Part shown: positions 8,905 through 28,327 of the stretch, one piece after another
Layout: each line of letters starts with the position of its first letter
How positions within the stretch are numbered: the stretch's first letter is position 1
IMG/VR virus record: IMGVR_UViG_2703718873_000026
Length of the DNA: 36,140 nucleotides
From: a virus
Taxonomy: Duplodnaviria; Heunggongvirae; Uroviricota; Caudoviricetes
Strand: one strand, 5' to 3'
The notes under the pieces: generated by a model
The model's database searches: none
What the model saw: the letters and a program-made list of their open reading frames with translations, nothing else
What the model was told of the DNA's origin: nothing
Program-made: the position numbers and the translations under genes

Positions 8905-8999
8905 GCTGCTTTCTCCTGAAATAGAGGGCGGTGGACGGGGTTTTGATGTGGCAGTGCCTTTCGCCACCCCGTGCCGCCCGTGTGCGGGGGCACGTTCTG

Positions 9000-9650: not shown

Positions 9651-9653
9651 GAA

Positions 9654-10712: not shown

Positions 10713-10728
10713 CGGGTTTTGTGCTCCA

Positions 10729-11562
10729 TCAGCAATTGGTCAGAGTGTCAGCGGGGGCGTTACCGCCTGTTGCACGCTGGCGGTAGTCCTGGCGGCAGTC
10801 TTCATGACTCAGCTTGTCCACCAGTTCGTTAAAGGCGGTTTGCTGTGCCTGCAGGGCAGTCTCCAGCTCAGACAGGCGTTCTTCCTGCTCAGACAGGGAT
10901 TTTTCGGTGCGTGCGCTCAGGTTCTGCTGCTCAGTGGCGACCAGCTCCACGGCCTTATGCACATCAGAGAACCGGGCGTCATCGGACTGCTCTTTTTTGG
11001 TAAACAGCGCCGTGACACGGGCAAACAGGGACGGTTTGTCGTCCTGGATTTCTTCCAGTTCGATCACCGTTTCCTCTGCAGCGGTAAAGAGATTGGCAGG
11101 ATTCTGCTTGCGGTTTGCCAGTGGGTTATGGGCTGCACTGGCGCTGAATGTCAGCATTTCAGTGCCCAGACTGGCAGGGTCATCAGTGGCTGCCAGGCCG
11201 ACCAGGTAGGCTTTGCCCGTATCAGCGAACTTCGGGCTGACTTCCATAGAGGTGAATAATTTCTGGCCTTTTTTCACCAGCTCCACCAGGGACTCCGTTG
11301 GCTCAACGTCGGCATACAGCGCCATCTTGCCTGCCAGCGGACCTTCCATGATTTCTTCAGCAAACAGCGCCGTCACCTTGCCGTAGCGGTTAAAGGTGCT
11401 GTCCGGCAGATAAGACTTGATGTGCTCAAGGTTAATCAGCGCGGTATACACCGCCGGGTTGTAGCTGGCTGCCATCTGTTCCAGCCATTCACGCTGGATT
11501 TCGCGTCCGTCGGTGGTGGCACCTTCCACCCCGATGCGAAAACGCTTTGCTTTCACTGTCAT
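10729..11562 (-). CDS. O: capsid scaffolding protein, P2 gpO-like
   Basis: 277 aa; ..FRIGVEG.T.DGR.I....EQMA..NLEH.. and C-terminal ..ATGGNA...LTNC as in P2 O. Confidence 0.85.
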   Translation of the reverse strand: MTVKAKRFRIGVEGATTDGREIQREWLEQMAASYNPAVYTALINLEHIKSYLPDSTFNRYGKVTALFAEEIMEGPLAGKMALYADVEPTESLVELVKKGQKLFTSMEVSPKFADTGKAYLVGLAATDDPASLGTEMLTFSASAAHNPLANRKQNPANLFTAAEETVIELEEIQDDKPSLFARVTALFTKKEQSDDARFSDVHKAVELVATEQQNLSARTEKSLSEQEERLSELETALQAQQTAFNELVDKLSHEDCRQDYRQRATGGNAPADTLTNC

Positions 11563-11640
11563 GAGCCGTGCTCCGTTAGAAAAAACTTACTGGAGCCTTA
11601 TGGTTGCGGTGATGGGGGCAGTGAAACAATGCGCGGTATT

Positions 11641-11658
11641 TGTACCGACAACCACACA
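11641..11658. promoter_or_regulatory. late-promoter activator dyad TGT-N12-ACA in the divergent O/P intergenic region
   Basis: TGTACCGACAACCACACA between the divergent O and P starts, where P2 has late promoters PO/PP. Confidence 0.45.
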
Positions 11659-11704
11659 AACCGCAGGCGGGGAAAGCCGTCATTCAAGGCTGTAGGTTTG
11701 TGCC

Positions 11705-13471
11705 ATGAACACCACACTGACACCCGCAGATCTCGATCCCCGTCGGCAGGCCATGCTGCTGTACTTTCAGGGATACCGCGTAGCCCGCATTGCTGAAATG
11801 CTGGGCGAGAAAGTTGCAACCGTTCACAGCTGGAAAAAACGCGACAAGTGGGGTGACTATGGGCCGCTGGATCAGATGCAGCTCACCACCGCCGCACGCT
11901 ACTGCCAGCTCATTATGAAGGAGCACAAAGAAGGGAAAGATTTCAAAGAGATTGACCTGCTGGCGCGCCAGTCTGAGCGCCACGCGCGGATCGGCAAGTT
12001 TAACAATGGCGGCAACGAAGCCGACTTAAACCCTAACGTCGCCAACCGCAATAAAGGCCCACGCCGTCAGCCGGAAAAGAATGTTTTCACCGATGAGCAG
12101 ATTGAGAAGCTGGAAGAAATCTTCCATTCCTCCATGTTCAACTACCAGCGCCACTGGTGGGAAGCCGGAAAAACCAACCGCATCCGCAACCTGCTGAAGT
12201 CACGCCAGATCGGCGCGACCTTCTATTTTGCCCGTGAAGCCCTGATTGACGCCCTGCTTACCGGACGTAACCAGATTTTCCTTTCTGCCAGTAAGGCTCA
12301 GGCCCACGTCTTTAAACAATACATCATCGACTTCGCCAAAGAAGTCGAGGTGGAGCTAAAAGGCGATCCGATGGTGCTTCCTAACGGAGCCACGCTTTAC
12401 TTCCTCGGCACCAATGCCCGCACGGCCCAGAGTTATCACGGCAACCTGTATCTGGATGAATATTTCTGGATACCGAAATTCCAGGAGCTGCGCAAAGTGG
12501 CTTCCGGGATGGCTATTCACAAAAAATGGCGACAAACCTATTTTTCCACGCCATCCAGCCTGACCCACAGTGCTTATCCGTTCTGGTCCGGTGCGCTGTT
12601 CAACCGTGGACGCAACAAAGCTGACAAGGTGGACATCGACCTGTCCCACAGCAATCTGGCCCCCGGCCTGCTGTGCGCAGACGGGCAATACCGCCAGATA
12701 GTCACCGTGGAAGATGCGGTGCGCGGCGGCTGTAACCTGTTCGACCTCGACCAGCTACGCATGGAGTACAGCCCGGACGAATACCAGAACCTGCTGATGT
12801 GCGAGTTCGTGGACGATCTCGCGTCCGTGTTCCCGCTCAGCGAACTGCAGGCGTGCATGGTGGACAGCTGGGAAGTCTGGACCGACTTTCATGCACTGGC
12901 CCTGCGCCCGTTTGGCTGGCGCGAAGTGTGGATCGGTTATGACCCGGCAAAAGGTACGCAGAACGGCGACAGTGCCGGATGCGTGGTGGTGGCTCCGCCA
13001 GCCGTGCCGGGTGGTAAGTTCCGCATTCTTGAGCGTCACCAGTGGCGCGGGATGGACTTCCGCGCCCAGGCTGACGCCATCAAAAAACTCACCGAACAGT
13101 ACAACGTGACCTATATCGGTATCGACTCAACCGGCGTTGGTCACGGGGTTTATGAGAACGTGAAAGCGTTCTTTCCTGCCGTCCGGGAGTTTGTCTACAA
13201 CCCCAATGTTAAAAACGCCCTGGTACTCAAGGCCTACGACATTATCAGCCACCGCCGTCTGGAGTTTGACGCCGGGCACACCGACATTGCGCAGTCATTC
13301 ATGGCAATCCGTCGCGCCACCACCGCCAGCGGCAACCGCCCGACCTATGAAGCCAGCCGCAGCGAAGAAGCCAGCCACGCCGATCTGGCCTGGGCAACGA
13401 TGCACGCACTGTTTAACGAACCGCTGCAGGGCGAATCCGCCAATACCAGCAATATTGTGGAGATTTTTTGA
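11705..13471 (+). CDS. P: terminase ATPase (large) subunit, P2 gpP-like
   Basis: 588 aa; length and position match P2 P. Confidence 0.9.
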   Translation: MNTTLTPADLDPRRQAMLLYFQGYRVARIAEMLGEKVATVHSWKKRDKWGDYGPLDQMQLTTAARYCQLIMKEHKEGKDFKEIDLLARQSERHARIGKFNNGGNEADLNPNVANRNKGPRRQPEKNVFTDEQIEKLEEIFHSSMFNYQRHWWEAGKTNRIRNLLKSRQIGATFYFAREALIDALLTGRNQIFLSASKAQAHVFKQYIIDFAKEVEVELKGDPMVLPNGATLYFLGTNARTAQSYHGNLYLDEYFWIPKFQELRKVASGMAIHKKWRQTYFSTPSSLTHSAYPFWSGALFNRGRNKADKVDIDLSHSNLAPGLLCADGQYRQIVTVEDAVRGGCNLFDLDQLRMEYSPDEYQNLLMCEFVDDLASVFPLSELQACMVDSWEVWTDFHALALRPFGWREVWIGYDPAKGTQNGDSAGCVVVAPPAVPGGKFRILERHQWRGMDFRAQADAIKKLTEQYNVTYIGIDSTGVGHGVYENVKAFFPAVREFVYNPNVKNALVLKAYDIISHRRLEFDAGHTDIAQSFMAIRRATTASGNRPTYEASRSEEASHADLAWATMHALFNEPLQGESANTSNIVEIF

Positions 13472-14496
13472 TGGGAAAGAGTAAGAAAAACCGCGCTGCG
13501 GCGACGAATCAGCTCAAGCATAAAAGCCAGACTTCAGCCGAAGCATTCAGCTTTGGCGATCCCGTTCCTGTTCTGGACCGCCGTGAACTGCTGGACTATG
13601 TGGAATGCGTACAGATGGACCGCTGGTATGAGCCGCCCGTCAGCTTTGACGGACTGGCACGAACCTTCCGCGCTGCCGTGCATCACAGCTCACCGATTGC
13701 AGTAAAATGCAACATTCTGACCAGTACCTACATCCCTCACCCGCTGCTCAGCCAGCAGGCTTTTTCGCGTTTTGTACAGGACTATCTGGTTTTTGGTAAC
13801 GCCTACCTGGAAAAACGCACGAACCGCTTCGGAGAGGTCATCGCTCTTGAGCCTGCGCTGGCAAAATACACCCGACGCGGGTTAGACCTGGATACCTACT
13901 GGTTTGTGCAATACGGTATGACAACCCAGCCGTATCAGTTCACGAAAGGCAGCATCTTTCATCTGTTGGAACCGGACATCAACCAGGAGATCTACGGCCT
14001 GCCCGGTTATCTTTCTGCCATTCCGTCAGCTCTGCTCAACGAGTCCGCCACGCTGTTCCGCCGCAAGTATTACATTAACGGCAGTCATGCAGGCTTCATC
14101 ATGTACATGACCGATGCTGCGCAGAACCAGGAGGATGTGAACAACCTCCGCAATGCGATGAAAAGCGCCAAAGGACCAGGTAACTTCCGCAATCTGTTTA
14201 TGTACTCGCCTAACGGCAAAAAGGACGGACTTCAGATCATCCCATTGTCAGAAGTCGCGGCGAAGGATGAGTTTCTGAATATCAAAAATGTCAGCCGCGA
14301 TGACATGATGGCAGCGCATCGTGTGCCACCGCAAATGATGGGGATTATGCCGAATAATGTTGGGGGGTTTGGGGATGTGGAAAAAGCGAGTTTAGTGTTT
14401 GTGAGGAACGAATTAATACCCTTACAGAAAAGGATGCAGGAATTAAATAAATGGCTTGAAGATAATATATTACAATTCAAACCATATAAATTTTAA
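13471..14496 (+). CDS. Q: portal (capsid) protein, P2 gpQ-like, with a divergent AT-rich C-terminal ~20 codons
   Basis: ..SAEAFSFG.P...DRR..LDY..WYEPP.SF.GLAR..HHSS..NILTST.IPHP.. and ..GPGNFRNLFMY.PNGKKDGLQ.IPLSEVAAKDEFLNIKNVSRDD.MAAHRVPPQ.MGIMPNN.GGFGDVEKA..VFVRNELIPLQ.. colinear with P2 Q. ATG overlaps the P stop; the ORF track adds one TTG codon (13468). Confidence 0.9.
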   Translation: MGKSKKNRAAATNQLKHKSQTSAEAFSFGDPVPVLDRRELLDYVECVQMDRWYEPPVSFDGLARTFRAAVHHSSPIAVKCNILTSTYIPHPLLSQQAFSRFVQDYLVFGNAYLEKRTNRFGEVIALEPALAKYTRRGLDLDTYWFVQYGMTTQPYQFTKGSIFHLLEPDINQEIYGLPGYLSAIPSALLNESATLFRRKYYINGSHAGFIMYMTDAAQNQEDVNNLRNAMKSAKGPGNFRNLFMYSPNGKKDGLQIIPLSEVAAKDEFLNIKNVSRDDMMAAHRVPPQMMGIMPNNVGGFGDVEKASLVFVRNELIPLQKRMQELNKWLEDNILQFKPYKF

Positions 14497-14505
14497 CGAA
14501 AAATC

Positions 14506-14532
14506 AGCCTTAGCGTTCATAACGTTAGGGCT
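14506..14532. terminator. bidirectional hairpin terminator between convergent Q and retron RT
   Basis: 12-bp stem AGCCTTAGCGTT / AACGTTAGGGCT (two G-U pairs), 3-nt loop, A-run upstream (T-run on the minus strand) and T-rich tail downstream. Confidence 0.55.
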
Positions 14533-14537
14533 GTTCA

Positions 14538-16484
<1,947 letters not shown>

Positions 16485-16528
16485 TCAACTTTCTGTTTTC
16501 CAGAAGTATTTTGGCTATTTTCGGTGAT

Positions 16529-16558
16529 AGCGCGCGCTCGTATCCCCGCCACGCCTGC
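16529..16558. other. cos (cohesive end site) of P2/186 type
   Basis: Minus strand reads GGCGTGGCGGGGATACGAGCGCGCGCT. From memory P2 cos is GGCGAGGCGGGGAAAGCAC followed by TGCGCGCT and the 186 end starts GGCGTGGCGGGGA. Located beyond the 3' end of Q, as in P2/186. Confidence 0.5.
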
Positions 16559-16574
16559 CCGCTTTATGCAGTGG

Positions 16575-16685
16575 TTTTCATGCACATGCATGACATGAGC
16601 AAAAGCCCGCCAGTTCTGGCGGATCTGAGCAAAGACGATCCTCAATCGATCATGCGATTTCATGCAGCATAGTCATGCACTGTCA
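16575..16685. repeat. cluster of CATGC(A/G) repeats flanking cos (candidate cosB / terminase-binding elements)
   Basis: At least five copies within ~110 bp (..TTCATGCACATGCATGACATGAGC.. and ..ATCATGCGATTTCATGCAGCATAGTCATGCACTG..); the same hexamer lies in the retron a1/a2 repeats. Confidence 0.35.
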
Positions 16686-16934
16686 AGGAAGTGAAAATCC
16701 GTATCTGAATGGCCACTTGAAAAACGGATCATACGGGTTTACAAAGATGAATGTTCGCTGTGAACGGGAAGCGGAAGTTAACTTTCAGATAACATAATCC
16801 ATATGCGCGAGAACCTCTAAAATAGAATGGGACACCTAAGCGGGGTACTTACAACGATTCTTTCCATATTCACAGTTAACACTCTGTTTGGCGTATTTTT
16901 ATTCAAATAGCAAACACCAATAAAAGGAGTTTCC

Positions 16935-17270
16935 ATGAACAATATTCCCCCTATACCACAGTTAGGAATTTATGTCTCAAAAATCGATCCCACCCTACGT
17001 ATCACTGTAACCGATGTTGATATTGTTGATGGTGAGGATGATTCTCCTGATGATGAATTGTTTTATTTAGTCCACTGGATCGAGGGGGAAGATGAAAGTG
17101 ATATGACAGCAATGGGATTTGAGCTAGACCCAGTAGAGTGGCAGGCTTTCGTTGAATCTGAGCAATTAGTGTTTGAGCGTGATCCGTACATGGATTCAAT
17201 CCCCGAAAATTCAAACTTGGCAAAGATTCGGGATTTTCTCATGAAGACTAAACAGAATGATCATTCGTAA
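16935..17270 (+). CDS. hypothetical acidic protein (111 aa, rich in D/E)
   Basis: ATG with AAGGAG about 7 nt upstream; opposite strand to the Tum/A genes; between cos and the tum module. No family recognised. Confidence 0.55.
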   Translation: MNNIPPIPQLGIYVSKIDPTLRITVTDVDIVDGEDDSPDDELFYLVHWIEGEDESDMTAMGFELDPVEWQAFVESEQLVFERDPYMDSIPENSNLAKIRDFLMKTKQNDHS

Positions 17271-17424
17271 GTGTAAGCATCCATCAGGAAAATGGTTTTG
17301 TAAGTGAATCATCAACTTTTAGAGAGTCTCAGACACTCCCACTTCTGCTTCTGACACAAAGCGGACGATCACTTATCAAAATAACCGCCCACCTTACGCC
17401 TTATTTCACTCATTGCCCAAACTA

Positions 17425-17454
17425 GCCCCCATCAGAATGAATCCTCCTGGGGGC
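17425..17454. terminator. GC-rich hairpin between convergent genes (possible terminator)
   Basis: GCCCCCA ..16 nt.. TGGGGGC between the end of the 16935..17270 ORF and the end of the DinI-like gene; no clear T-tract. Confidence 0.3.
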
Positions 17455-17462
17455 AACATTTC

Positions 17463-17696
17463 TTAATGCAGCCAGCTGTCGTCCTCCCACACCTTCTGCA
17501 TAATTTTCATCACTTGTTTTCTTTCTTCATCCAGTTGCAGTCCGGTTAGTTCCACACCGTTAGAGCTACCTTTGCGAATGCGAATTACCGTTTTGGGATA
17601 CAGGGGGCGCAGATTGCGGTAAAGCTCGGATTCAAGTGCGTCCAAGGTAGACTGGCTAATCTTCTGCTCTTTATCGATCATTATTTCAATGCGCAT
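17463..17696 (-). CDS. DinI-like protein (Tum C-terminal-domain-like antirepressor candidate)
   Basis: From ATG 17694-17696 with GAGGTG upstream: MRIEIMIDKEQK..LDALESELYRNL..VIRIRKG..GL..DEERKQVMKIMQKVWEDDSW, same pattern as E. coli DinI. ORF track extends to 17768 in a frame overlapping the upstream ORF. Confidence 0.7.
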   Translation of the reverse strand: MRIEIMIDKEQKISQSTLDALESELYRNLRPLYPKTVIRIRKGSSNGVELTGLQLDEERKQVMKIMQKVWEDDSWLH

Positions 17697-17706
17697 AAAA
17701 GTCACC

Positions 17707-17895
17707 TCAGCTGATGACATCCATTGAGCGGTTGTATTCGTGGCTTCTGATTTTTGCCATGAGTTCATCAGTCAATTCAGAAACCCACTGCAGAGCCAGC
17801 CCCTTCTCTTCATCACTACACTCACTAGCCGCTACAAGCTTAAGAAAAAAATCAATGCGCTGGAGCTTCAAAGACTCCAAAAAATAGTCCTGCAT
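17707..17895 (-). CDS. small protein upstream of the DinI-like gene (possible N-terminal part of a split Tum-like antirepressor)
   Basis: 62-aa ORF starting ~45 bp downstream of a LexA box, ending just upstream of and in a different frame from the DinI-like ORF. Confidence 0.5.
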   Translation of the reverse strand: MQDYFLESLKLQRIDFFLKLVAASECSDEEKGLALQWVSELTDELMAKIRSHEYNRSMDVIS

Positions 17896-17935
17896 CTTTC
17901 CTCCTATGACACCAAAACAATACTGTATACATAAC

Positions 17936-17955
17936 CACTGTTTATATTTACAGTA
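17936..17955. promoter_or_regulatory. LexA (SOS) box
   Basis: CACTGTTTATATTTACAGTA matches CTGT-N8-ACAG, immediately upstream of the minus-strand tum-like module, as expected for the SOS-controlled tum promoter of 186. Confidence 0.7.
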
Positions 17956-18047
17956 TATAATAATCTTACTGATGTAAAACGTTTTTTTACGTTCATCGGC
18001 CTGATATGCCTGGTATTATTAAGAGCACGAATTGTTAACCCGCGTAA

Positions 18048-20462
18048 TTAATACAGGTTCCGCCACTTATCATCTTCCTTCAGACGCTGGTTCCGATAGA
18101 AGATACGCAGGCCTGCTCCTGACGGAATACTGCCGCCGCGAAGGAGCAAATCGACTTCTTTCTCGCTGCCATCAAATCCCCTGGACTTCAGTTCATAGAC
18201 GAGCTGCTGTCGCTGATGGTCTGTAATTCGCTGTTTGTAGTCTTTACGCCGTTTCGGTTTCACCTGGCGTAACCTTGCAGCCAGTTCCCGGCGCTCTTTT
18301 TTGCTCATACTGTGCAGGTAATCGTGCAACTCCTTGTCATTCATACGGGTAATATCCGTTCTGGAGTCCCCATCAGCTGATTTGTCTTTCCCTTGTTGGT
18401 TCAAATTTTCAGCAAGGGGACAGTTATTGCCACGAGTCCAAGGGGCGCAAGCGCCCTGGTCGGCTACCGCCTCCTGAACGTCAACGGCCTTACGAACCAT
18501 TTTCCACTTCACTGCATGAGTGCAGATCTTGCCCTCTGCAATGGGTGACCAGATGCCATAAATACGAATGCCGTGATCGCCATAGGCGGTCGGCTCTTCG
18601 TTGATTTCATAAGCGGTTCTGATAAGGTGATATTTACGGGGAACCAGTACGCCGCCCTGCTTCATGATGTAGGTGGCAAAACAACCAGCATCAGCAGCAG
18701 CCAGGATGGCATCAAGGCGCGGGTCATCCAGTATCGGCGCACCTGCTTTTTTGTCACCCTGTTGCCTTGCCGCCTGACCAGCCAGCAAGCGAAGTTCACG
18801 GTAAGCCTGACGTCCCGGAATACCAAAGAAGCGGAACTGCTGAACACGATGCAGAGACGCCCAGGCATTAACGTATTCGGCGTTATCACGCAGGGATTTA
18901 CCCGTTTCCTTGCTGATCTCGCCAGCCAGACCACGCCCGTCAATGTTCTTACTGATGTATTTCGCGATGTAGCTTGTCGGTGTTCCTTTGCGCGGGTTAA
19001 TCAGCTCAGACTTAAAGCGTGGCCCCGTGTTGTTGCCCAGCTCCTCGCGGTCTACACGGATGGCAAACTTACGCAGTAATGCAGTGATGGCGCGGCGGTC
19101 TTTTTTACGCATGAAGCACATGAGATGCCAGTGCACAGTACCGTCATGGTGCGGCTCAGCCACCCGCACGCCATACCAGCGCAACCCGGTTTTGTGCATT
19201 GCCTTACGAAATGCAGCAAACATGCCGACCATATAATCGCTGCTTTGTCTTACCGTCGCATTTGTCCAGGTCGGGTTGGGTCTGCCGTTGTTGAGCGTGG
19301 AATGGAAACGTGACGGACAGGTGATAGTGTAGAAAACGGCGCAGTCACCGCGCATTTCCGCGATAAGCTCCAGACCTTTAACACAGGCCATCATCTCATT
19401 GCGGCGATGCGCAGGGTTGCTGCTGCTGGCGTTTACCACATCCTCCATGTCCAGCGTGTCGCCGTCTTCGTTCACCAGTTCATGAGAACGGAAAAACTCC
19501 AGCGACTTACGGCGCTGCTCACGTTTATGCATCACGGCTTCATAGCTGACATAGGGAGATGCTTTTTTGCTGACCAGGCAGACAGCACGCAACTGCTCTT
19601 CCCGCCATTCGCAACGCATCTTCCATAATTTCCGATACCACCAGTCGGCGCACAACATACGCGCCAGCGAACCCGGAATGAGTTCATAGGGCACGGGTTT
19701 ACGGCGGTTTCTTTTCCGACGGAGTTGCTCAAACGCAGGTGGGATGACATCCAGACGCAGGGTTTCCGCCGCCACCTTTTCCCATGTCTTGCGGATTTCT
19801 TCTGGCTTAACGTCATCGGTGGCATACAAATCGCCACAAGCTGCATCAAGGCACATGCTCATATGCGCAGCTACCAGGGTGGACAGGCGTTTCACCTGAT
19901 CCTGACTCATTTCAGGCAGAATCAGCAGGCCCTCCAGCCCTTGATGGCTTGCCATAAAACGGAAAGAAGCAGACAGCTGACTGTCACGTACACAATCCAG
20001 TCGCTCCAGACATGGCTTAATCGTCTCACGCAAATAGCGGGAATAAGCCTTTGGCCTGCCCAGGCTGCTGAAGTATTCGATACGTTGCATCAGCGGCTTG
20101 CTAATATGGGTGGGCTGGGCGCTGACGTCCGCCAGAATGACCATGTCCGGGTTAAAACGCTGCTGTTCATGCGCTAGCTTTGCCCGGCTAATGAGCTTAT
20201 CCTGCTCCATTTCGCGCTGGACAGGATCACGAGATTCATTAAAGAAATAACGCTCCCAGACCTGCTCACTCAGTGCATCGCGGCGCAGCTGTTCCTGCTC
20301 ATTATCGGCAGCGTACAGAGTGATCAGGTTTAAAAGTGCAGACTCCGGAGCAACTTCCGCCGGGTCCAGATAAGGGTTAATGGCCTTTTTCGGGCCGTTC
20401 CATGAAAATGCTGCAGCGGCCTCGTTAAAGCCGCTAGAGTTGCTCATATCGTCATGACTCAT
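18048..20462 (-). CDS. A: replication initiation protein (rolling-circle endonuclease), P2 gpA-like
   Basis: 804 aa; metal-binding ..[12 protein letters not shown].. and Tyr-containing region ..[10 protein letters not shown]..; start ATG overlaps the dam stop (ATGA). Confidence 0.85.
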
Positions 20463-21316
20463 ACACGCACCTCGTACACAGCAGAACTATCTACGCCACA
20501 CGAAGGATCAAATCCCACCCAGCAGCGCGCCCCGGAAACAGCAATGATTTCTGTTGCAGATTTACTCTCGCCAGCCGACACGCCGATGCTGCGTTTTGCC
20601 TTGATGTAGTGGTGAGTGAAATTTCGATACAGCGAACGGATCAGGGATGTGTCACTGTTAGAAACAATGACTGGATGACCTTCTGATGATCGATATTCAA
20701 GAACAGATGCCAGGTGATACTGGTCATCTTCAGTGAAGCCGTCAGTGTGATAGCCGGAAAACGTACCGTCATAAGGCGGATCGCAATACACCACATCCCC
20801 CACCTGCAGCATCGCCAGCGTTTCATCAAAGCTGGCGCAGATAAACGTTGCTCGCTGGGCTTTCTCTGCAAATGCGCGAATTTCTTTTTCAGGGAAATAC
20901 GGATTTTTATAATTACCGTATGGAATGTTGAAATGCCCGCTCTTGTTATAACGACATAACCCACGGTAACCATGACGATTGAGATACAGGAAATATACCG
21001 CTTTCATGAAATCAGTAATTTCAGTGGAGTAATTAAACTCCTGCCTTATGTTGTAATAAGCCACCTCCCTGTTTGCTTCCTCAAATAAAGCTCTGGCACG
21101 AGATATAAACGCCTCGCAATCAGCAGCAACCTTTTTATAGAGGTTGATTAAATCAGGATTAATATCCGCAACAAGATAGCTGGGGTAATCCGTCTCCATC
21201 ATCACAGCACAGGAACCCGCGAAAGGTTCAACCAGTCGCGGGCCAGCAGGAAGATGTTTTTTCAGTTCGGACATAATGGCAGTTTTATTACCCGCCCATT
21301 TCAGGATGGTGCTCAT
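20459..21316 (-). CDS. dam: DNA adenine methyltransferase (Dam-like, N6-adenine)
   Basis: From internal [14 protein letters not shown]..; motifs ..[10 protein letters not shown].. (AdoMet binding) and DPPY. ORF track extends 24 codons upstream. Confidence 0.85.
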
Positions 21317-21615
21317 ACAGCACCTCCTGCAATAACATATCCTAAAGCTTCTAATGGGGTTAATGGGCGAATTGATAGCATCACCCATTGTTCTGAAACT
21401 GCCATGACGTCATTAACCGGAAGCACATGAGAGATAACAGCGGCCCATTCCCTACCCGTAAATACGCCATGCTTCCATTCGCAAAGAGAAAGAACATCAC
21501 CAACTTTATAGCCACGATCGTCTTTACGAAGTTCAGCCGTCTTTTGACCTGCAACCACAGCGTTGAAATACTTAGGTGCAATTTTTAATTGATGGATACG
21601 CACTGCCCTTGTCAT
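21313..21615 (-). CDS. small hypothetical protein (about 100 aa; DUF3850/ASCH-like by N-terminal pattern)
   Basis: From internal [45 protein letters not shown]..; family assignment from memory only. ORF track extends to 21675. Confidence 0.55.
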
Positions 21616-21839
21616 ACAGCACCTCCGTTGTAATGTTTGCCTTTCAGCTCTGCGATTTCCTGGCAGGTAATGCAAAGCTGCACTCCCGGAATGGCACGGC
21701 GGCGTGCTGGCGGAATTGGCGCTTCACACTCAATGCAAAGCACGCGAGACACGCCCGGTGTTTTGGCACGGGCAGCACGGATATGGCGCTGGCGTTCTTC
21801 TTCAACGCGCTGCTGTACGAGATCCATTGCATCAGCCAT
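21612..21839 (-). CDS. TraR/DksA-family C4 zinc-finger protein
   Basis: 75 aa with CIECEAPIP ...18 aa... CITCQ. Confidence 0.7.
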
Positions 21840-22078
21840 TAGTGGATCTCCTGCGCTTCGTTCTGGATTGCTTCAGCAGTCACACGCAGCAGTTCTGCCG
21901 CTTCCACGTGGTTTAGCTGACGGGATGAGATATGACACGCCAGGCTATCAAGGCGAGCTGCCATTGCTTCAGCCCTTGCCCGGCGTTCTTCCAGACGAGC
22001 CTCTGTCAGTAAAATATTAAGCCCTGCATCATCCGGTCCGGTTTTAGTCGTGAGGATTTCAATATTACGCATAATCAA
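21839..22078 (-). CDS. hypothetical early-region protein
   Basis: 79-aa ORF, start overlaps next gene (ATGA-type); between cII-side genes and A. Confidence 0.5.
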   Translation of the reverse strand: MIMRNIEILTTKTGPDDAGLNILLTEARLEERRARAEAMAARLDSLACHISSRQLNHVEAAELLRVTAEAIQNEAQEIH

Positions 22079-22139
22079 TTCTCCTGAATTTAGATAAAGG
22101 GATGCCCGGCGGGTTTACGCCATTAATTTCATTAGTTGG

Positions 22140-22481
22140 TTAATTCGGCATGGTTAGCCGTCTGGGAAATAAGCTCACCACTGCACGAAAATGATTCATT
22201 GCTTTAATCAACTCCCGCTTTTCGTCAGTGGTCAGCTCATTGATGCTGATGCTATGACGTTCAGCCGGAATTTTTGCCATAAAGAATATGGCTGCCAGTG
22301 CTCGTTTATTTTGTTCGTTATTGATATCCCGTGGATCACGCATATCTTTAATAAACCGCTCAAGCTCTGACTCAATATTCAGGCCAAAAACTTTCGCCCT
22401 TAATTCCGCTATGTGATTAAGTCCATTCAGGCGTTCACCGGGGCTTAATGGAACAGTAGCCGCAGCGCCTTCAATAGCCAT
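22140..22481 (-). CDS. hypothetical early-region protein (position of 186 fil/dhr-type genes)
   Basis: 113-aa ORF, ATG with GGGGGA upstream; overlaps the upstream gene by ~37 nt. Confidence 0.5.
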   Translation of the reverse strand: MAIEGAAATVPLSPGERLNGLNHIAELRAKVFGLNIESELERFIKDMRDPRDINNEQNKRALAAIFFMAKIPAERHSISINELTTDEKRELIKAMNHFRAVVSLFPRRLTMPN

Positions 22482-22645
22482 TTGTTCCCCCGTTTTTTCG
22501 TAGATAGTTCTGCCAGCAATTCATCTTGTGAACGGCACGGATGCCAGCGTTTACCATCCTCACCCATGATCCAGCCGTGACCGTAGTGCATTGCCGGGCT
22601 TTGTTTTACCAGCAGCGATGCAAATGATGGTTCTTTCGTCAGCAT
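22445..22645 (-). CDS. hypothetical small early protein
   Basis: ATG at 22643-22645 with GAGGTG upstream, 8 nt after the cII stop; ORF track extends to 22675. Confidence 0.5.
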   Translation of the reverse strand: MLTKEPSFASLLVKQSPAMHYGHGWIMGEDGKRWHPCRSQDELLAELSTKKRGNKWLLKALRLLFH

Positions 22646-22652
22646 AAGCACC

Positions 22653-23162
22653 TCACAGCAAACCGAATGAAGCACCGAGGCCAGTCACGGTATCAACTGC
22701 ACTCGCCATCGCAGGATTAGCCTGTAAACGGGCCTGCAATGAAACAGCAGCCAGCGCCATCAGTCGTGTTACAGAGTTAATGCTGCTGATAGCATCACGA
22801 CGACCGGCACTAGTTTTTACATCACCAGATACCGCACCTGCTGCAACACGTCCAATCTCTGCAGTTGCGCTCATGACGTAATGCGGCAGTTTCTCTTTTG
22901 CAACCTCATTAATCGGTACACATGGCAGGCAGTGAATCTGTGCCAGAAAACCATCTACCAGCGTTGAATCTTCTGTCAGATCGGTAAGCAGCCAGATTTC
23001 TGGTGCGGTTAATAAATGAGGTTGAGATGGGTTCAGCTTGTTCCGCAGAATCTGCACATTCATGCCAGCACGTTCTGCCAGTTGCACCAGATTGTGGCGC
23101 AGTGCGAATGCACGACAGGCTTCATCAAAATGTGGATGTTTGGAAACTTGGTAATCAAACAT
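22653..23162 (-). CDS. cII: CII-like lysogeny establishment activator (phage 186 CII homolog)
   Basis: From ATG 23160-23162: [60 protein letters not shown], 169 aa, colinear with 186 CII (also 169 aa). ORF track adds 3 codons from a TTG. Confidence 0.85.
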
Positions 23163-23226
23163 GGTTTTCAACTCCGAACTTATCGCAAAATCGAACTCAG
23201 CGTCTTATTGCGAAAATAGACATCTA

Positions 23227-23403
23227 TTAAGCAGACAAAGCATCAACAGTCAGAGCAGCCAGGTTAATCATTACCTTTTCACGTTTTTTGTCTTTACGAA
23301 GACGATGACGAGGTAGTCGGCCATCAGCCAACATGTCGTTAATCGTATCAATAGAAAGGCCAGTCAGTTCGCTATAACGTTGGTTTGGGAGAAGGTTCGG
23401 CAT
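23227..23403 (-). CDS. apl: Apl/Cox-like excisionase/repressor with a chimeric N-terminus created at crossover site B
   Basis: ..[40 protein letters not shown].. resembles P2 Cox. Current ATG (23401-23403) and first ~8 codons (MPNLLPNQ) are encoded by site B plus tail-fibre cassette DNA. ORF track extends to 23508. Confidence 0.6.
23368..23393. other. invertase crossover-like site B: TTCGCTATAACG-TT-GGTTTGGGAGAA
   Basis: Right half identical to the inner half of site C; core TT versus AA at site A; lies exactly at the apl / tail-fibre-cassette junction. Confidence 0.55.
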
Positions 23404-23888
23404 TACCCGTTGGTGTGCCTGTTCCGTGGCCTTCCGCCACTCCGCCAACAGGCTGGCTGAAATGCAACGGTGCGGCTTTTTCTGCTGAAGAATACCCGGA
23501 ACTGGCAAAGGCTTACCCGACCAATAAATTGCCTGATTTACGCGGTGAATTTATTCGTGGCTGGGATGACGGTCGCGGGATTGATACTGGTCGCGCTTTG
23601 CTTAATTGGCAGCCACACACAATTTTGGACCATGCACACTATATGGAATTATGGACAGGGGACGGACTCGCCGCAGGAAGTGCACGGGAAGGAGTAAACC
23701 CAGGAATACTGGCTACATACGGTGACGGGGGAATAGTTAAAACGGATGAACCCGGTCTTAAGGTGCCTTCCTCACTACGAGCTATTAGCTCTCGTAGTGT
23801 TAAACGTTATGGTGAAATTAGTGAAAATGTAGGTACAGAAACTCGTCCTCGTAACATCGCTTTTAATTATATTGTGAGGGCCGCATGA
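23382..23888 (+). CDS. tail fibre variable C-terminal cassette 1 (receptor-binding segment), no own start
   Basis: Begins at the conserved half-site GGT TTG GGA GAA (G L G E) and encodes ..[62 protein letters not shown].., typical of Mu S / P2 H C-terminal domains. Confidence 0.75.
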   Translation, partial: GLGEGSALPVGVPVPWPSATPPTGWLKCNGAAFSAEEYPELAKAYPTNKLPDLRGEFIRGWDDGRGIDTGRALLNWQPHTILDHAHYMELWTGDGLAAGSAREGVNPGILATYGDGGIVKTDEPGLKVPSSLRAISSRSVKRYGEISENVGTETRPRNIAFNYIVRAA

Positions 23889-24490
23889 TGAATAAAGCTG
23901 TATTAAATAGCGAACTCATTGCCATAAAAGCGGGAGATATTACCGTTTATAATTATGATGGTGAAACGCGGGAATATATTTCTACATCAACTGAATATCT
24001 CGCTGTCGGCGTCGGTATCCCGGCATGTTCCTGTCTGGATGCACCAGGTACACATAAAGCTGGTTATGCAATCTGTCGCTCTGTAGATTTAAATTCATGG
24101 GAATATGTGCCAGACCATCGCGGTGAAGTTGTCTATAGTACCGAAACGGGAGATACCAAAGAAATCACAGTTCCGGGTGATTACCCTGAAAATACAACCA
24201 CTATCGCCCCATTAACGCCATACGATGAATGGGATGGTGAGAAATGGGTGACAGATACCGAGGCACAGCATAGCGCCGCAGTAGGCGCGGCAGAAGCACA
24301 GCGCCAGTCGCTGATTGATGCTGCTATGGCTTCCATCAGTCTGATTCAGCTGAAATTGCAGGCCGGGCGGCAGCTGACGCAAGCAGAAATCACCCGCCTT
24401 AACGCTGTGCTGGATTACATTGACACGGTGACGGCAACAGATACCAGCACCGCGCCGGATGTCATCTGGCCTGAACTGCCGGAGGCGTAG
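23885..24490 (+). CDS. tail fibre assembly protein (Tfa / P2 gpG-like)
   Basis: 201 aa; C-terminal ..LQAGRQLTQAEITRLNAVLDYIDTVTATDTSTAPDVIWPELP.. typical of Tfa chaperones. Confidence 0.8.
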   Translation: MMNKAVLNSELIAIKAGDITVYNYDGETREYISTSTEYLAVGVGIPACSCLDAPGTHKAGYAICRSVDLNSWEYVPDHRGEVVYSTETGDTKEITVPGDYPENTTTIAPLTPYDEWDGEKWVTDTEAQHSAAVGAAEAQRQSLIDAAMASISLIQLKLQAGRQLTQAEITRLNAVLDYIDTVTATDTSTAPDVIWPELPEA

Positions 24491-24905
24491 GCCATTCAAT
24501 ATCTGGAGCACTGGAGGTATCAACCAGTTCCAGTGCGTCCAGATAATCCAGCCACAAATTATATTGCGCCAGTTCCTCACTTTTCAGACGACCAATCGCC
24601 GCTTTGCCAGGCCACTGATGGGTATTGATGTAGGTATTGACTTCAGAAACCAAAGATATTTTTTTCATTTCAGCCGTCAACACCTCATCCTCTTTTGAAG
24701 GGGGTGGGGAATTAATCCATACTGGCCGTCCTGAACTGTCAGCGCCAATTTCTTTCCCTTCTGGATGCAGCCCAAGAAATTGCTCATATGTTTCTCTGGT
24801 AATTTCAATAACATCATCAGGAAGCGTTCCCGCATCCTCATATTCTGGAAACAATTCTTGCAGATAAAAACTTTTACTTCCGGGTGAAAAGAATACTGAG
24901 TTCAT
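24462..24905 (-). CDS. tail fibre assembly protein (second, opposite-orientation copy)
   Basis: 147 aa; C-terminal ..LAQYNLWLDYLDALELVDTSSAPDIEWP.. ; convergent with the first Tfa. Confidence 0.8.
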   Translation of the reverse strand: MNSVFFSPGSKSFYLQELFPEYEDAGTLPDDVIEITRETYEQFLGLHPEGKEIGADSSGRPVWINSPPPSKEDEVLTAEMKKISLVSEVNTYINTHQWPGKAAIGRLKSEELAQYNLWLDYLDALELVDTSSAPDIEWPTPPAVQAR

Positions 24906-24907
24906 TA

Positions 24908-25360
24908 TTACCGTCCAATGATTAATGCTGAGACGCTGGTATCTGAAGGAAAGGCTGCATTCAGTGGTTTGTCGACTTTGAACACAATCGTATTATTCCC
25001 CCTGACAGCGGCAAAAGAACAAACCGCAGTCGCGTATGAACCTGTAATATTACTGGATACACCACCATAAGCTGTTGTTGATACCAGAGGGATAACGCCC
25101 AGCACCTTATTAGGAAATACAAAGGGCAATGTGGCTGTGGCAATATAAGACTTATTAGAACCTGTAATGGCATAAGCATTATCAGTCATTCCATTCATCG
25201 CCACCGGGCCGCTTATACTTACAGTAACCATCTGAATGATTAGCCCGTCAGGTTGACGAATCACAAAATTTCCATTGCCACCAGTAACCGTCCAGAAAGA
25301 CATATCAGGGATTTGGTTTTCCCCGTTGCCCACATTCCGTTTTGCCGCTTCTCCCAAACC
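24908..25360 (-). CDS. tail fibre variable C-terminal cassette 2 (alternative receptor-binding segment)
   Basis: On the minus strand begins ..FINVGLGEAAKRNVGNGENQ.. at site C, in frame with the same G-L-G-E half-site codons. ORF track 24908..25402. Confidence 0.7.
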   Translation of the reverse strand, partial: GLGEAAKRNVGNGENQIPDMSFWTVTGGNGNFVIRQPDGLIIQMVTVSISGPVAMNGMTDNAYAITGSNKSYIATATLPFVFPNKVLGVIPLVSTTAYGGVSSNITGSYATAVCSFAAVRGNNTIVFKVDKPLNAAFPSDTSVSALIIGR

Positions 25361-25374
25361 AACGTTTATGAAAA
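25349..25374. other. invertase crossover-like site C: TTCTCCCAAACC-AA-CGTTTATGAAAA
   Basis: Inverted copy of site B (shared half GGTTTGGGAGAA, complementary core); about 55 bp upstream of the invertase gene. Confidence 0.55.
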
Positions 25375-25429
25375 TGCAGAGATAATGGCTAACTGGCATC
25401 ATCCACGGTTTTTATTCAGGGGATTGATC

Positions 25430-25996
25430 ATGCTTATTGGCTATGTACGCGTGTCAACAAATGACCAGAACACCGATTTGCAACGTAATGCACTGAACTG
25501 CGCGGGATGTGAGCGGATTTTTGAGGATAAAATCAGTGGCACTAAGTCCGACAGACCGGGGCTTAAAAAACTGCTCAGGACACTATCGGCAGGAGACACT
25601 CTGGTTGTCTGGAAGCTGGACAGGTTGGGGCGCAGTATGCGGCATCTTGTTACGCTGATAGAAGAGTTGCGTCAGCGTGGCGTGAATTTCCGAAGCCTGA
25701 CTGACAGTATTGATACCAGCACCCCAATGGGCCGTTTCTTTTTTCATGTCATGGGGGCCCTGGCTGAAATGGAACGCGAACTGATAGTTGAACGTACCAT
25801 GGCAGGGCTGGCTGCAGCTCGTGCCAAAGGCAGAGTAGGTGGACGCCGTCCTAAGTTGACCACCGAACAGTGGGCACAGATTGGGCGTTTACTCGAGGCC
25901 GGAGAATCAAGACAGCGTATTGCACTGATTTTTGATGTAGGCGTTTCTACCATTTATAGAAAATTTCCGGCAAATAAGAGCAATGAATCCCCCTGA
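25430..25996 (+). CDS. pin: serine recombinase, DNA invertase of the Hin/Gin/Pin/Cin family
   Basis: From internal ATG: MLIGYVRVSTNDQNTDLQRNAL..GDTLVVWKLDRLGRSM..FRSLTDSIDTSTPMGRFFFHVMGALAEMERELI.ERT.AGLAAAR.KGR.GGR.PKLT.., near-colinear with E. coli e14 Pin. ORF track extends 59 codons upstream. Confidence 0.9.
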   Translation: MLIGYVRVSTNDQNTDLQRNALNCAGCERIFEDKISGTKSDRPGLKKLLRTLSAGDTLVVWKLDRLGRSMRHLVTLIEELRQRGVNFRSLTDSIDTSTPMGRFFFHVMGALAEMERELIVERTMAGLAAARAKGRVGGRRPKLTTEQWAQIGRLLEAGESRQRIALIFDVGVSTIYRKFPANKSNESP

Positions 25997-26044
25997 ATCA
26001 GCATTATTTTGATTATCCCTGCAAGTAGACAAATACCGTCATTT

Positions 26045-26062
26045 TGTGTGAATAACGACACA
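26045..26062. promoter_or_regulatory. late-promoter activator dyad TGT-N12-ACA upstream of FI (PF-like)
   Basis: TGTGTGAATAACGACACA about 75-95 bp upstream of the FI ATG; AGGAGG before the ATG. Confidence 0.45.
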
Positions 26063-26138
26063 ACTGCGCTTAGCTGTTTGTCAGGCACAATCACTTCAAC
26101 ATAGGGCGAAGCCTAATCCAATCAGGAGGTTCGCCACT

Positions 26139-27311
26139 ATGGCTCAGGATTACCACCACGGGGTGCGCGTTGTTGAAGTCAACGAAGGCACCCGATCTAT
26201 TACCACGGTGAGCACCGCCATCGTGGGTATGGTCTGCACGGGCGATGATGCCGATGCAAAAATGTTTCCTCTTAATAAACCCGTGCTGATCACTGATGTG
26301 CTGACTGCCAGCGGTAAAGCGGGTGAGTCAGGTACTCTGGCCCGTTCGCTGGATGCCATCGCTGACCAGGCAAAACCCGTGACCATTGTTGTGCGTGTGC
26401 CGCAGGGTGAAACGGAAGACGAAACCACGACCAATATCATCGGCGCAGTGACTGCTGAAGGTAAAAAAACAGGTATGAAAGCCCTGTTATCTGCCCAGTC
26501 ACAGCTCGGCGTTAAACCGCGCATTCTCGGCGTGCCAGGCCACGACACCAAGGCGGTAGCTACTGAGTTGCTAAGCGTGGCGCAAAGCCTGCGTGGATTT
26601 GCTTACCTGTCAGCGTATGGCTGCAAGACAGTGCAGGAGGCGATCACTTACCGCGAAAACTTCAGCCAGCGCGAAGGGATGCTGATCTGGCCTGACTTTA
26701 CTGGCTGGGACACGGTGCTGAATGCCGAAGCAACGGCATATGCCACCGCCCGTGCGCTTGGTCTGCGCGCCAAAATTGACGAGCAGACCGGATGGCACAA
26801 AAGCCTGTCCAACGTGGGCGTGAACGGTGTCACCGGAATTTCTGCAGATGTGTTCTGGGATCTGCAGGACCCGGCAACCGATGCAGGTCTGCTGAACCAG
26901 AACGACGTCACCACGCTTGTGCGTAAAGACGGTTTCCGCTTCTGGGGTTCCCGCTGCCTGAGTGATGACCCGCTCTTTGCCTTCGAAAACTACACCCGCA
27001 CGGCGCAGGTGCTGATGGACACGATGGCAGAAGCACACATGTGGGCGGTGGATAAACCGCTTAACCCGTCGCTGGCCCGCGACATTATCGAAGGTATCCG
27101 CGCCAAAATGCGCAGCCTGGTCAGTCAGGGCTATCTCATTGGTGGTGATTGCTGGCTGGATGAGTCGGTGAACGACAAAGACACGCTGAAAGCCGGAAAA
27201 CTCACCATCGACTACGACTACACGCCAGTGCCGCCACTTGAAAACCTGATGCTGCGTCAGCGCATCACCGATCAGTACCTGGTGAATTTCGCCAGCCAGG
27301 TCAGCGCGTAA
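26139..27311 (+). CDS. FI: contractile tail sheath protein, P2 gpFI-like
   Basis: 390 aa; [19 protein letters not shown].. typical of P2 FI. Confidence 0.9.
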
Positions 27312-27320
27312 GGGGACAAC

Positions 27321-27836
27321 ATGGCTTTACCACGCAAATTAAAACACCTGAACCTGTTTAACGACGGGAACAACTGGCAGGGGATCGTTGAGTCGCTGAC
27401 GCTGCCGAAATTTACCCGCAAATATGAGAAGTATCGCGGCGGCGGAATGCCGGGTGCGGTGGATGTGGACCTGGGGCTTGATGACAGTGCGCTGGACACA
27501 GAATTTTCCATTGGTGGTACTGAATTGCTGCTGTTTAAACAGATGGGTAAAGCCACGGTGGATGGCATCCAGCTGCGCTTTACCGGCTCTATTCAGCGTG
27601 ACGATACCGGGGAAGTGCAGGCCGTGGAGCTTGTCGTGCGTGGACGTCACAAAGAAGTGGATTCCGGCGAGTGGAAGACGGGCGAAAGCAACACCACCAA
27701 AGTGACCAGTACCAACAGCTACGCGAAGCTGACCATCAATGGTGAGGTGCTCTATGAAGTGGACCTTATCAACATGGTGGAAATTGTGGACGGTGTGGAC
27801 CTGATGGAAGCGCACCGCAACGCCCTCGGCCTCTGA
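27321..27836 (+). CDS. FII: tail tube protein, P2 gpFII-like
   Basis: 171 aa immediately after FI; MALPRKLKHLNLFNDGNNW.. Confidence 0.85.
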   Translation: MALPRKLKHLNLFNDGNNWQGIVESLTLPKFTRKYEKYRGGGMPGAVDVDLGLDDSALDTEFSIGGTELLLFKQMGKATVDGIQLRFTGSIQRDDTGEVQAVELVVRGRHKEVDSGEWKTGESNTTKVTSTNSYAKLTINGEVLYEVDLINMVEIVDGVDLMEAHRNALGL

Positions 27837-27890
27837 TATATCTGAACGGCGCGGGATACCGCGCCAGAACCCAATTGACAGGACAGCAAA

Positions 27891-28193
27891 ATGAGCGATA
27901 AGCAGACTGAAAAGACCATTCAACTGGATACCCCCATCAAGCGCGGTAAAACAGAAATCACCGAAATTGTGCTGCGTAAACCGCAGTCCGGTGCGCTGCG
28001 CGGTACACGCCTGCAGGCCATTATGGATATGGATGTAAACGCGATGATGACCGTGATCCCCCGCATCTCCAGTCCGGCACTGACTGCACAGGAAATTGCA
28101 GAGATGGACCCGGCAGATCTCACTGCCATGTCGGTTGAGGTTGTCACTTTTTTGTTGAAGAAGTCGGTGCTTGCCGGTTTACCGACAGCCTGA
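27891..28193 (+). CDS. E: tail assembly chaperone, P2 gpE-like
   Basis: 100-aa ORF between FII and the tape measure gene; contains the slippery run TTTTTTG near its 3' end. Confidence 0.75.
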   Translation: MSDKQTEKTIQLDTPIKRGKTEITEIVLRKPQSGALRGTRLQAIMDMDVNAMMTVIPRISSPALTAQEIAEMDPADLTAMSVEVVTFLLKKSVLAGLPTA

Positions 28194-28327
28194 CGGTTGA
28201 CGATCTGGTGGCAGATATCGCCACCATTTTTCACTGGCCGCCATCCGTTACTGACGTTATGCCGCTGACCGAAGTGCTGGAATGGCGGTATAAAGCGATT
28301 CAGAGAAGCGGGGCCAACGATGAGTGA
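27891..28327 (+). CDS. E+E' fusion by programmed -1 frameshift (P2 gpE' type)
   Basis: TTTTTTG at about 28149-28155; the -1 frame stays open to a TGA overlapping the T start (ATGAGTGA), as in P2 E/E'. Confidence 0.5.

Follow-up and report, generated by a model that had tools for sequence, protein, structure and literature searches.

Why should a prophage keep an invertible tail-fibre segment, together with a recombinase to invert it, when no tail-fibre gene stands beside it? This question is raised by a stretch of 36,140 nucleotides from a virus (Caudoviricetes; IMG/VR record IMGVR_UViG_2703718873_000026), which we analysed whole and call the window. Positions 23368-25996 hold two alternative C-terminal cassettes for the tail-fibre protein H, two opposed genes for tail-fibre assembly chaperones (Tfa), inverted crossover sites and a DNA invertase gene. 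Our answer, to which we give a probability of about 0.85, is that this is the Din-family switch of a P2/186-like retron prophage, cut off from H by an inversion of 21,167 bp through a quasi-site in an apl/cox-like gene. The module is made up as follows (aa, amino acids).

23368-23393: site B, a hybrid crossover site, TTCGCTATAACG-TT-GGTTTGGGAGAA, made of the right half of the apl quasi-site and the cassette half-site
23381-25361: the invertible segment, 1,981 bp between crossover centres
23382-23888, plus strand: cassette 1, an alternative C-terminus of H (Pfam Collar, tail-collar, E=1e-15)
23885-24490, plus strand: Tfa1, the assembly chaperone of cassette 1 (Pfam Caudo_TAP, E=2e-30)
24462-24905, minus strand: Tfa2, the assembly chaperone of cassette 2 (Pfam Caudo_TAP, E=3e-28)
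24908-25360, minus strand: cassette 2, an alternative C-terminus of H (GLGEAAKRNVG...), with a weak Gp53-like_C match of 24.6 bits, below the cut-off of 24.9
25349-25374: site C, a bona fide crossover site, TTCTCCCAAACC-AA-CGTTTATGAAAA, 18/20 against the dyad consensus
25430-25996, plus strand: a serine DNA invertase of 188 aa with a C-terminal helix-turn-helix (Pfam Resolvase and HTH_7)
25448-25519: a putative recombinational enhancer (of the Fis-dependent type) within the coding sequence of the invertase, placed by homology to the enhancer annotated at nt 19-90 of P1 cin

Pfam searches and mapping of repeats and sites bear out the anatomy described in the initial annotation: two cassettes, two opposed Tfa genes, inverted 26-bp sites and a Pin-family invertase. 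The sequence AACGTTGGTTTGGGAGAAG forms a perfect 19-nt inverted repeat (23376-23394 / 25348-25366), the strongest in the surrounding 7 kb, where the chance expectation for such a pair is ~9e-5. Within the 36-kb window the exact half-site GGTTTGGGAGAA occurs only at 23382-23393 (plus strand) and 25349-25360 (minus strand). Sites B (centre TT) and C (centre AA) are 26-bp sites of the 12-2-12 type in inverted orientation with matching central dinucleotides, as expected of Din-family sites, and both are similar to P1 cixL and to the sites of EC958 Phi2.

The invertase shares 83.5% of its residues with e14 PinE, 78.6% with P1 Cin and 75.1% with D108 Gin, and aligns over residues 1-184 with the crystallised Gin (PDB 3uj3; E=1e-93), the catalytic Ser9 being present in MLIGYVRVSTNDQ. 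Judged by these similarities it is a small serine recombinase of the Din family, kin to Gin, Cin, Pin and Hin. Invertible tail-fibre segments driven by Gin, Cin or Pin are classical, and the likeness to the Mu G and P1 C segments that had been proposed for this locus is sound, with an invertase 75-79% identical to Gin and Cin. The label 'shufflon' does not fit, because the recombinase is of the serine type and not a tyrosine Rci; this is a simple Din-family switch. An R64-type shufflon, in which the tyrosine recombinase Rci acts on 19-bp sfx sites on pilV, was considered and rejected on the same ground, the only tyrosine recombinase of the window being the integrase at 1-1053. The candidate enhancer matches that of P1 cin at 56/72 positions, but the same stretch encodes the conserved N-terminus of the protein, so this conservation is not independent evidence. 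Fis and this putative enhancer probably assist inversion.

The features on the far side of the problem lie at the other end of the window and next to site B.

2046-2074, plus strand: a candidate early lytic promoter (pR-like), TTGACA-17-TAAAGT, from a consensus scan only
2164-2214, plus strand: 17 codons from the 5' end of the apl/cox-like gene (MTPNISITLNTPHVTIE), broken off at site A
2201-2226: site A, a hybrid crossover site, ATGTCACAATCG-AA-GGTATGTGAGAA, made of the left half of the apl quasi-site and the H half-site
2204-3262, minus strand: H', the tail-fibre gene in truncated form, whose 352 aa make up the constant N-terminal part (Pfam Phage_tail_fib N-terminal, E=1.5e-64)
2214-23380: the inverted segment, 21,167 bp, inverted against the canonical P2/186 order as judged by blastn against the collinear prophages PRO_A-1443 and N1420, which share the same att site
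23227-23379, minus strand: the 3' fragment of the apl/cox-like gene, 50 codons, adjoining site B and deprived of both start codon and promoter

H thus has its constant part (3262->2204) at a distance of 21 kb from the module and on the other strand, and not ahead of site B. H' ends in LLTYLRL*, with its stop after ...GKDVTGLLTYLRL at site A. In collinear relatives the constant part stands immediately outside the invertible segment, as a host-range module needs; in the window it does not, and what the window holds is a rearranged copy of a Mu G / P1 C / e14 P-type module, not a working one. Host-range switching, which the initial annotation had proposed, fails here because the 21-kb inversion has disconnected the cassettes from H; H is annotated by PGAP as a pseudogene, 'incomplete, missing C-terminus', in 4/4 rearranged complete genomes.

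The cassettes themselves are sound. As had been predicted, H is in frame with cassette 1 and with cassette 2 once the half-sites are joined, giving reconstructed proteins of 518 aa (cassette 1) and 500 aa (cassette 2, ...LLTYL/GLGEAAKRNVG...). These exact sequences are present in public data, on 25 and 9 contigs respectively, and collinear prophages are annotated with H proteins of the same lengths (PRO_A-1443, 518 aa; N1420, 500 aa). Cassette 1 is joined to H in PRO_A-1443, and cassette 2 in N1420 and fS25a.

Comparison by blastn places the breakpoints exactly. Window positions 2213-21327 are the reverse complement of PRO_A-1443 and positions 23377-36140 are collinear with it, and 1-2214 and 20030-23390 map in the equivalent way onto N1420. 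The segment between the breakpoints, 2214-23380, which amounts to two-thirds of the prophage, contains H, I, J, W, V, S, R, the lysis genes, the head genes, P, Q, the retron reverse transcriptase (RT), A, Dam, cII and the apl remnant (apl'), and its ends coincide with the central dinucleotides of sites A and B. Inverting it in silico restores a 67-aa apl open reading frame (ORF), the canonical P2 gene order and the in-frame fusions of H with the cassettes. The 67-aa ORF, in which the 17 codons run on into 23379->23227, is intact as WP_000188450.1 in the collinear N1420 prophage and occurs on at least 1000 contigs.

The parental sites can be read from the same reconstruction. On the H side the site (B') is TTCTCACATACC-TT-GGTTTGGGAGAA, a good dyad, and at codon 17 of the apl/cox-like gene lies the quasi-site (A') ATGTCACAATCG-AA-CGTTATAGCGAA. 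Din-family invertases require inverted sites with matching centres, which they cleave with a 2-bp stagger; A' and B' are inverted and their centres match. Against the dyad consensus TTCTCNNAAACC the bona fide sites of the reconstructed canonical prophage score 19/20 and 18/20. What the two parental sites have in common is the 2-nt centre (TT) and 2/3 adjacent bases at the crossover, and because this identity is so short, homologous recombination is an unlikely source of the event. Site A had been taken as part of a three-site system; it turns out to be one of the two hybrid products of recombination between the H site and the apl quasi-site. We infer that the prophage's own invertase caused the large inversion.

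The inversion also split the start of the early operon. From the candidate pR, transcription would now run across the 17 apl codons, whose start is preceded by a Shine-Dalgarno sequence, and then antisense to H. This promoter would be pR by its position 5' of the apl start, as in the 186-type layout. Promoter and terminator scans around the switch stayed at chance level and served only as a pointer to this candidate. The apl remnant at the other end (ORF at window 23227-23403, minus strand; equivalent at 15087-15260 in locus L002) is annotated as either of two small proteins depending on the orientation of the segment, a 'hypothetical protein' of 58 aa or a 'regulator' of 57 aa. Both are annotation artefacts, and both are useful as orientation markers.

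We examined how widespread the arrangement is in 5426 complete E. coli genomes, and counted contigs by exact protein matches in a collection of 15 billion proteins. The rearranged order is rare and derived. The CI/H junction is found at full length in 4/5426 genomes (FHI_NMBU_11, CFIAFB20190167, JNEC-KY202 and JNEC-KY174) and the apl'/cassette-1 junction in two, and the reconstructed canonical junctions are found in 148 genomes (CI-apl-cII), ~160 (H/cassette 1) and 24 (H/cassette 2). The four genomes with the CI/H junction, which were obtained in Norway, Canada and Japan, differ from the window by only 2-5 changes over the 22.5-36 kb of prophage sequence compared, so they form one clone, of which the window is a fifth member. 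Position 2078 is A in the window and in collinear N1420 and G in all four rearranged complete genomes; because of this A, the window derives from a clone member outside the complete RefSeq genomes. Both strains from Japan are Shiga toxin-producing E. coli (STEC) O128ab:H2 (PMC13534694). The exact 352-aa H', which requires junction A, is present on 709 contigs and is entered in 1599 index blocks, and in 25/25 contigs read it stands beside CI, int and rcdA.

Other products of the same sites were looked for. The deletion expected from recombination of the apl site with site C (junction ATGTCACAATCG-AA-CGTTTATGAAAA) is present in 0/5426 genomes. Re-inversion between A and B was not seen, the clone being inverted in the four complete genomes, the window and all 25 contigs read. 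Likewise, no revertant with canonical order and the clone's sequence was found; the canonical copies belong to other lineages (PRO_A-1443, 99.4% identical over 19 kb; N1420, with different cargo genes).

Whether the ~2-kb segment occurs in both orientations had been set beforehand as a test of the module, and it does, across genomes and contigs at the level of assemblies. JNEC-KY202 has 23376-25366 reversed at 100% identity relative to the window and FHI_NMBU_11 (blastn), in an otherwise identical arrangement. A single-nucleotide polymorphism, 14155 G>A, is common to KY202 (flipped) and CFIAFB20190167 (unflipped), and since it is found with both orientations the flip in KY202 arose inside the clone, after the large inversion. 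The start of the apl remnant depends on the cassette that it faces, MPNLLPNQ... (58 aa) with cassette 1 and MPLLPNQ... (57 aa) with cassette 2, and these orientation-specific remnants occur on 593 and 537 contigs, respectively. The ratio is close to the 1:1 expected of a fast, unbiased switch. Because both orientations are about equally frequent within the clone, the hybrid site B is proficient and the invertase active. The nearly 50:50 split over ~1,100 contigs is also a data set from which flip rates could be estimated on a phylogeny.

A related prophage in enteropathogenic E. coli (EPEC) E2348/69 (NC_011601.1 866738-881094) encodes the identical invertase protein, WP_000905023.1. Here V-W-J-I-H has been turned around against an S gene that is truncated; the cassettes are missing, and V and the invertase are separated by a 384-aa cargo ORF. 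The left junction reads TTATGCTAAACG-TA-GGTATGTGAGAA and the right junction TTCCAAGTAACC-TA-CGTTTATGAAAA, at ~6993-7018 and 11738-11763 of the extracted locus (640-665 of locus L009 is listed alongside). The unrearranged S allele of ECO2947 carries the quasi-site TTATGCTAAACG-TA-GGTTACTTGGAA, both halves of which are those at the E2348/69 junctions. Only four records, all of the E2348/69 / O127:H6 lineage, show this arrangement. On these junction sequences E2348/69 appears to be a second, independent case of quasi-site use.

Several points weigh against our reading. We scanned the reconstructed prophage for 26-mers with an AA or TT centre and scored them out of 20 against TTCTCNNAAACC. The apl quasi-site is the third-best match (13/20), behind the two real sites, but sites scoring at least 13/20 arise 0.64 times per shuffled 33 kb, so that it does not go beyond chance, and the consensus used was derived from this element's own sites. 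At a score within chance, the quasi-site proves nothing beyond being the best available. Another Pin-like invertase could have acted in trans, as up to 8 matches to the region are found per E. coli genome. The contig counts rest on gene callers having picked identical start codons, and the loss of inducibility discussed below is deduced from gene order and a consensus promoter match. The scan suggests that the invertase used the best quasi-site on offer, with no sign that the apl site had been selected for the purpose.

It might instead be supposed that the three sites are a programmed system, in which the apl site was selected and reversible inversion of the 21 kb takes the prophage from an inducible to a locked state and back. 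Sites A and B are indeed still inverted, with matching central dinucleotides (AA and TT on the plus strand), so that re-inversion is chemically possible; the hybrid site B recombines proficiently with C; the apl quasi-site is the best in the prophage; and in a second lineage, E2348/69, with an identical invertase, the H site also recombined with a quasi-site. Yet every sampled member of the clone is inverted (four complete genomes, the window and 25/25 contigs read), a near-identical canonical copy was not found among the copies compared, and the apl site, at 13/20, is within chance and lies inside coding sequence. Moreover, decay is building up (the int frameshift of KY174, the shortened int of locus L013), and the E2348/69 event, at a different site and with the cassettes lost, looks more like accident than design. 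We therefore consider a programmed system quite unlikely. A related idea, which we hold to be unlikely, is that the invertase serves as an on/off device for the prophage: recombination of the H site with the apl site would detach the early lytic operon reversibly from its promoter, and the locked form would have been selected and have spread in a successful STEC clone. If this were true, the host would retain immunity, the retron and other prophage genes without the risk of induction.

In E. coli, homologous recombination commonly produces large inversions associated with prophages (background cited in PMC6379469), which makes RecA-dependent recombination, an insertion sequence (IS) or transposition, rather than an invertase, a natural candidate for the 21-kb event. 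However, the parental sites share only the 2-nt centre and 2/3 adjacent bases, the junctions coincide exactly with the centre dinucleotides of two 26-bp sites built of dyad half-sites, and neither an IS nor a duplication nor a long inverted repeat is found at the junctions, which leaves such an origin highly improbable. Invertible segments are also able to yield spurious alternative contigs (PMC4134206), and the arrangement could in principle come from mis-joining at short inverted repeats during assembly. We give this practically no credence: both junctions are common to four complete genomes from three countries, the exact H' that depends on junction A is on 709 contigs (1599 index blocks), and the repeats at A and B, of 2-5 nt, are far too short to mislead an assembler. 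That the module is intact and at present a working host-range switch is suggested by the integrity of all its parts and by the flipping of the segment. Against this, the constant part of H is 21 kb off on the other strand with a stop at site A, inversion between B and C merely swaps the cassette that faces the apl remnant, and neither H nor a late promoter precedes the cassettes. A working switch is accordingly very unlikely.

The course of events under our preferred reading, a Din-family switch uncoupled by quasi-site inversion, would be the following. In the canonical phage the invertase would recombine the two inverted 26-bp sites, probably with Fis and the enhancer within its own gene, and so place either cassette 1 with Tfa1 or cassette 2 with Tfa2 behind the constant part of H; the alternative fibres, of 518 or 500 aa, would differ in their receptor-binding tips. 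On one occasion the same kind of enzyme would have recombined the H-side site with the weak quasi-site at codon 17 of apl, inverting 21,167 bp. The inversion left H truncated at 352 aa, apl split and the early operon (apl-cII-...-Dam-A) parted from the promoter region adjoining CI. The cassette segment still inverts between hybrid site B and site C, without yielding a tail-fibre product.

In the window the cassettes have neither H nor a late promoter upstream, and because of the 21-kb inversion, flipping between B and C cannot join either of them to H. Most likely, the prophage is locked in the chromosome ("grounded"), non-inducible and without infectious particles. CI, the retron RT, Dam and the invertase stay intact. 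Decay is seen within the clone: int of JNEC-KY174 is frameshifted by a 1-nt deletion (equivalent to window position 482), and one Logan assembly (locus L013, 5894-6655) has a short int of 253 aa and is without a small YdcA-like gene.

The remainder of the window is that of a P2/186-like (Peduovirinae) prophage with a complete gene set, whose order is canonical only once the inversion of 2214-23380 is undone. The regulatory and integration genes are as follows.

1-1053, minus strand: int, the prophage integrase and sole tyrosine recombinase of the window
1449-2105, minus strand: the CI repressor
22653-23171, minus strand: a CII-family gene

Further genes are A, Dam, the retron Ec67-family RT and the P2 head and tail genes, with FI, FII, E, T, U, D and ogr downstream of the invertase. 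The prophage is inserted in the E. coli chromosome between rcdA and rybB/ybjL. A 22-nt direct repeat (21/22 identical), CGCTGCCGCCA[C/T]TTTGTCGCCA, at 19-40 and 33286-33307, the left copy of which lies in the 3' end of int, is probably the attachment (att) core. The host small RNA RybB (33363-33441, minus strand; 105 bits, Rfam) is encoded ~60 nt past the right copy.

An ORF of 646 aa (14538-16478, minus strand), with small ORFs extending to ~16935, bears in the matching RefSeq records the annotation of a retron Ec67-family RT/endonuclease, which makes the prophage a phiR67-type retronphage. No retron msr/msd or regulatory RNA was found by Rfam at the gathering threshold in the whole window, the only hit being host RybB. 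Cargo between the portal and replication genes differs among relatives: N1420 carries at 25049-29426 an ATP-dependent nuclease, a HIRAN gene, a HipA-domain gene and an exonuclease, and the window carries at 14538-17768 the retron RT, a DinI-like gene and others. This region is a typical P2 defence hotspot.

Overall, the closest relative of the module is the P segment of e14 in K-12 (stfP-tfaP / tfaE-stfE, pinE) with its invertase PinE. Both have opposed pairs of cassette and Tfa, and an invertase outside the segment beside one crossover site; Tfa1 is 89.6% identical to TfaE, and the 5' end of cassette 1 is 92.8% identical to stfE at the nucleotide level. In contrast, e14 is a lambdoid remnant and the present element a P2/186-like prophage, Tfa2 is only 48.3% identical to TfaP and cassette 2 also differs, and the constant part that adjoins the segment in e14 has here been moved 21 kb off. 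Likewise, Mu G/Gin and P1 C/Cin share the 26-bp 12-2-12 sites (P1 cixL is ...CCTAAACC-TT-GGTTTAAGAGAA), an enhancer in the 5' part of the invertase gene (here presumed from homology) and the provision of each alternative S or H C-terminus with a cognate assembly protein, but they belong to other phage families with other cassette sequences, and in P1 cix lies at the 3' end of cin.

Closer in phage type is the P2-like EC958 Phi2, in which inversion of a 2067-bp segment was shown by long reads, with the sites TCCTCAATTACC-TT-GGTTTAGGAGAA and GAGAGATAAACG-TT-GGTTTGGGGGAA (PMC4134206). P2-like loci of EPEC showed mixed orientations within cultures by paired-end mapping (PMC4272514). These are the same kind of 2-kb segment in the same type of phage, but the switches reported there are still attached to H, and no 21-kb inversion through apl is described for them.

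The event that uncoupled the switch also has known counterparts. Iida and Hiestand-Nauer (1986/1987; cited in PMC4134206) reportedly found Cin to recombine with quasi-sites (cixQ) sharing the central dinucleotide, in laboratory selections on plasmids or P1. As with cixQ, a Din invertase would here have joined a bona fide to a degenerate site, the centres being AA and TT, which match when inverted; unlike cixQ, this is a natural event that involves 21 kb of prophage and is fixed in a clone. The R64 shufflon and the Min system of p15B resemble the present locus in having several crossover sites and several arrangements of C-terminal cassettes, but Min has six designed sites in its fibre region, whereas the third site here is the hybrid scar of one aberrant event. 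Dorgai et al. (1993; cited in PMC6379469) are said to have described Int-mediated inversion within HK022 lysogens. There too a site-specific recombinase of the phage used a secondary site in the prophage, part of it was inverted and lysogeny was locked, but the enzyme was a tyrosine integrase acting at att sites, whereas here a serine invertase would have acted at a tail-fibre crossover site.

In the literature searched, the coverage of which was incomplete, we found no description of a natural, clone-wide 21-kb quasi-site inversion that uncouples both the fibre switch and the early operon. The switch is of a known kind, and the quasi-site inversion is a natural example and not a new mechanism. 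It offers a clean natural case, with base-exact junctions, in which a serine invertase used a quasi-site at a distance of 21 kb, a kind of event hitherto known mainly from the laboratory. For those who annotate such genomes it carries a warning, as orphan cassettes, a 352-aa H fragment and two apl remnants are called separate proteins or pseudogenes in hundreds of assemblies. For the biology of these phages it provides a concrete route by which a prophage may be immobilised by its own accessory recombinase, and indicates that the immobilised state can last in a pathogen lineage that has been widely sampled, even as the switch keeps flipping without a tail-fibre product.

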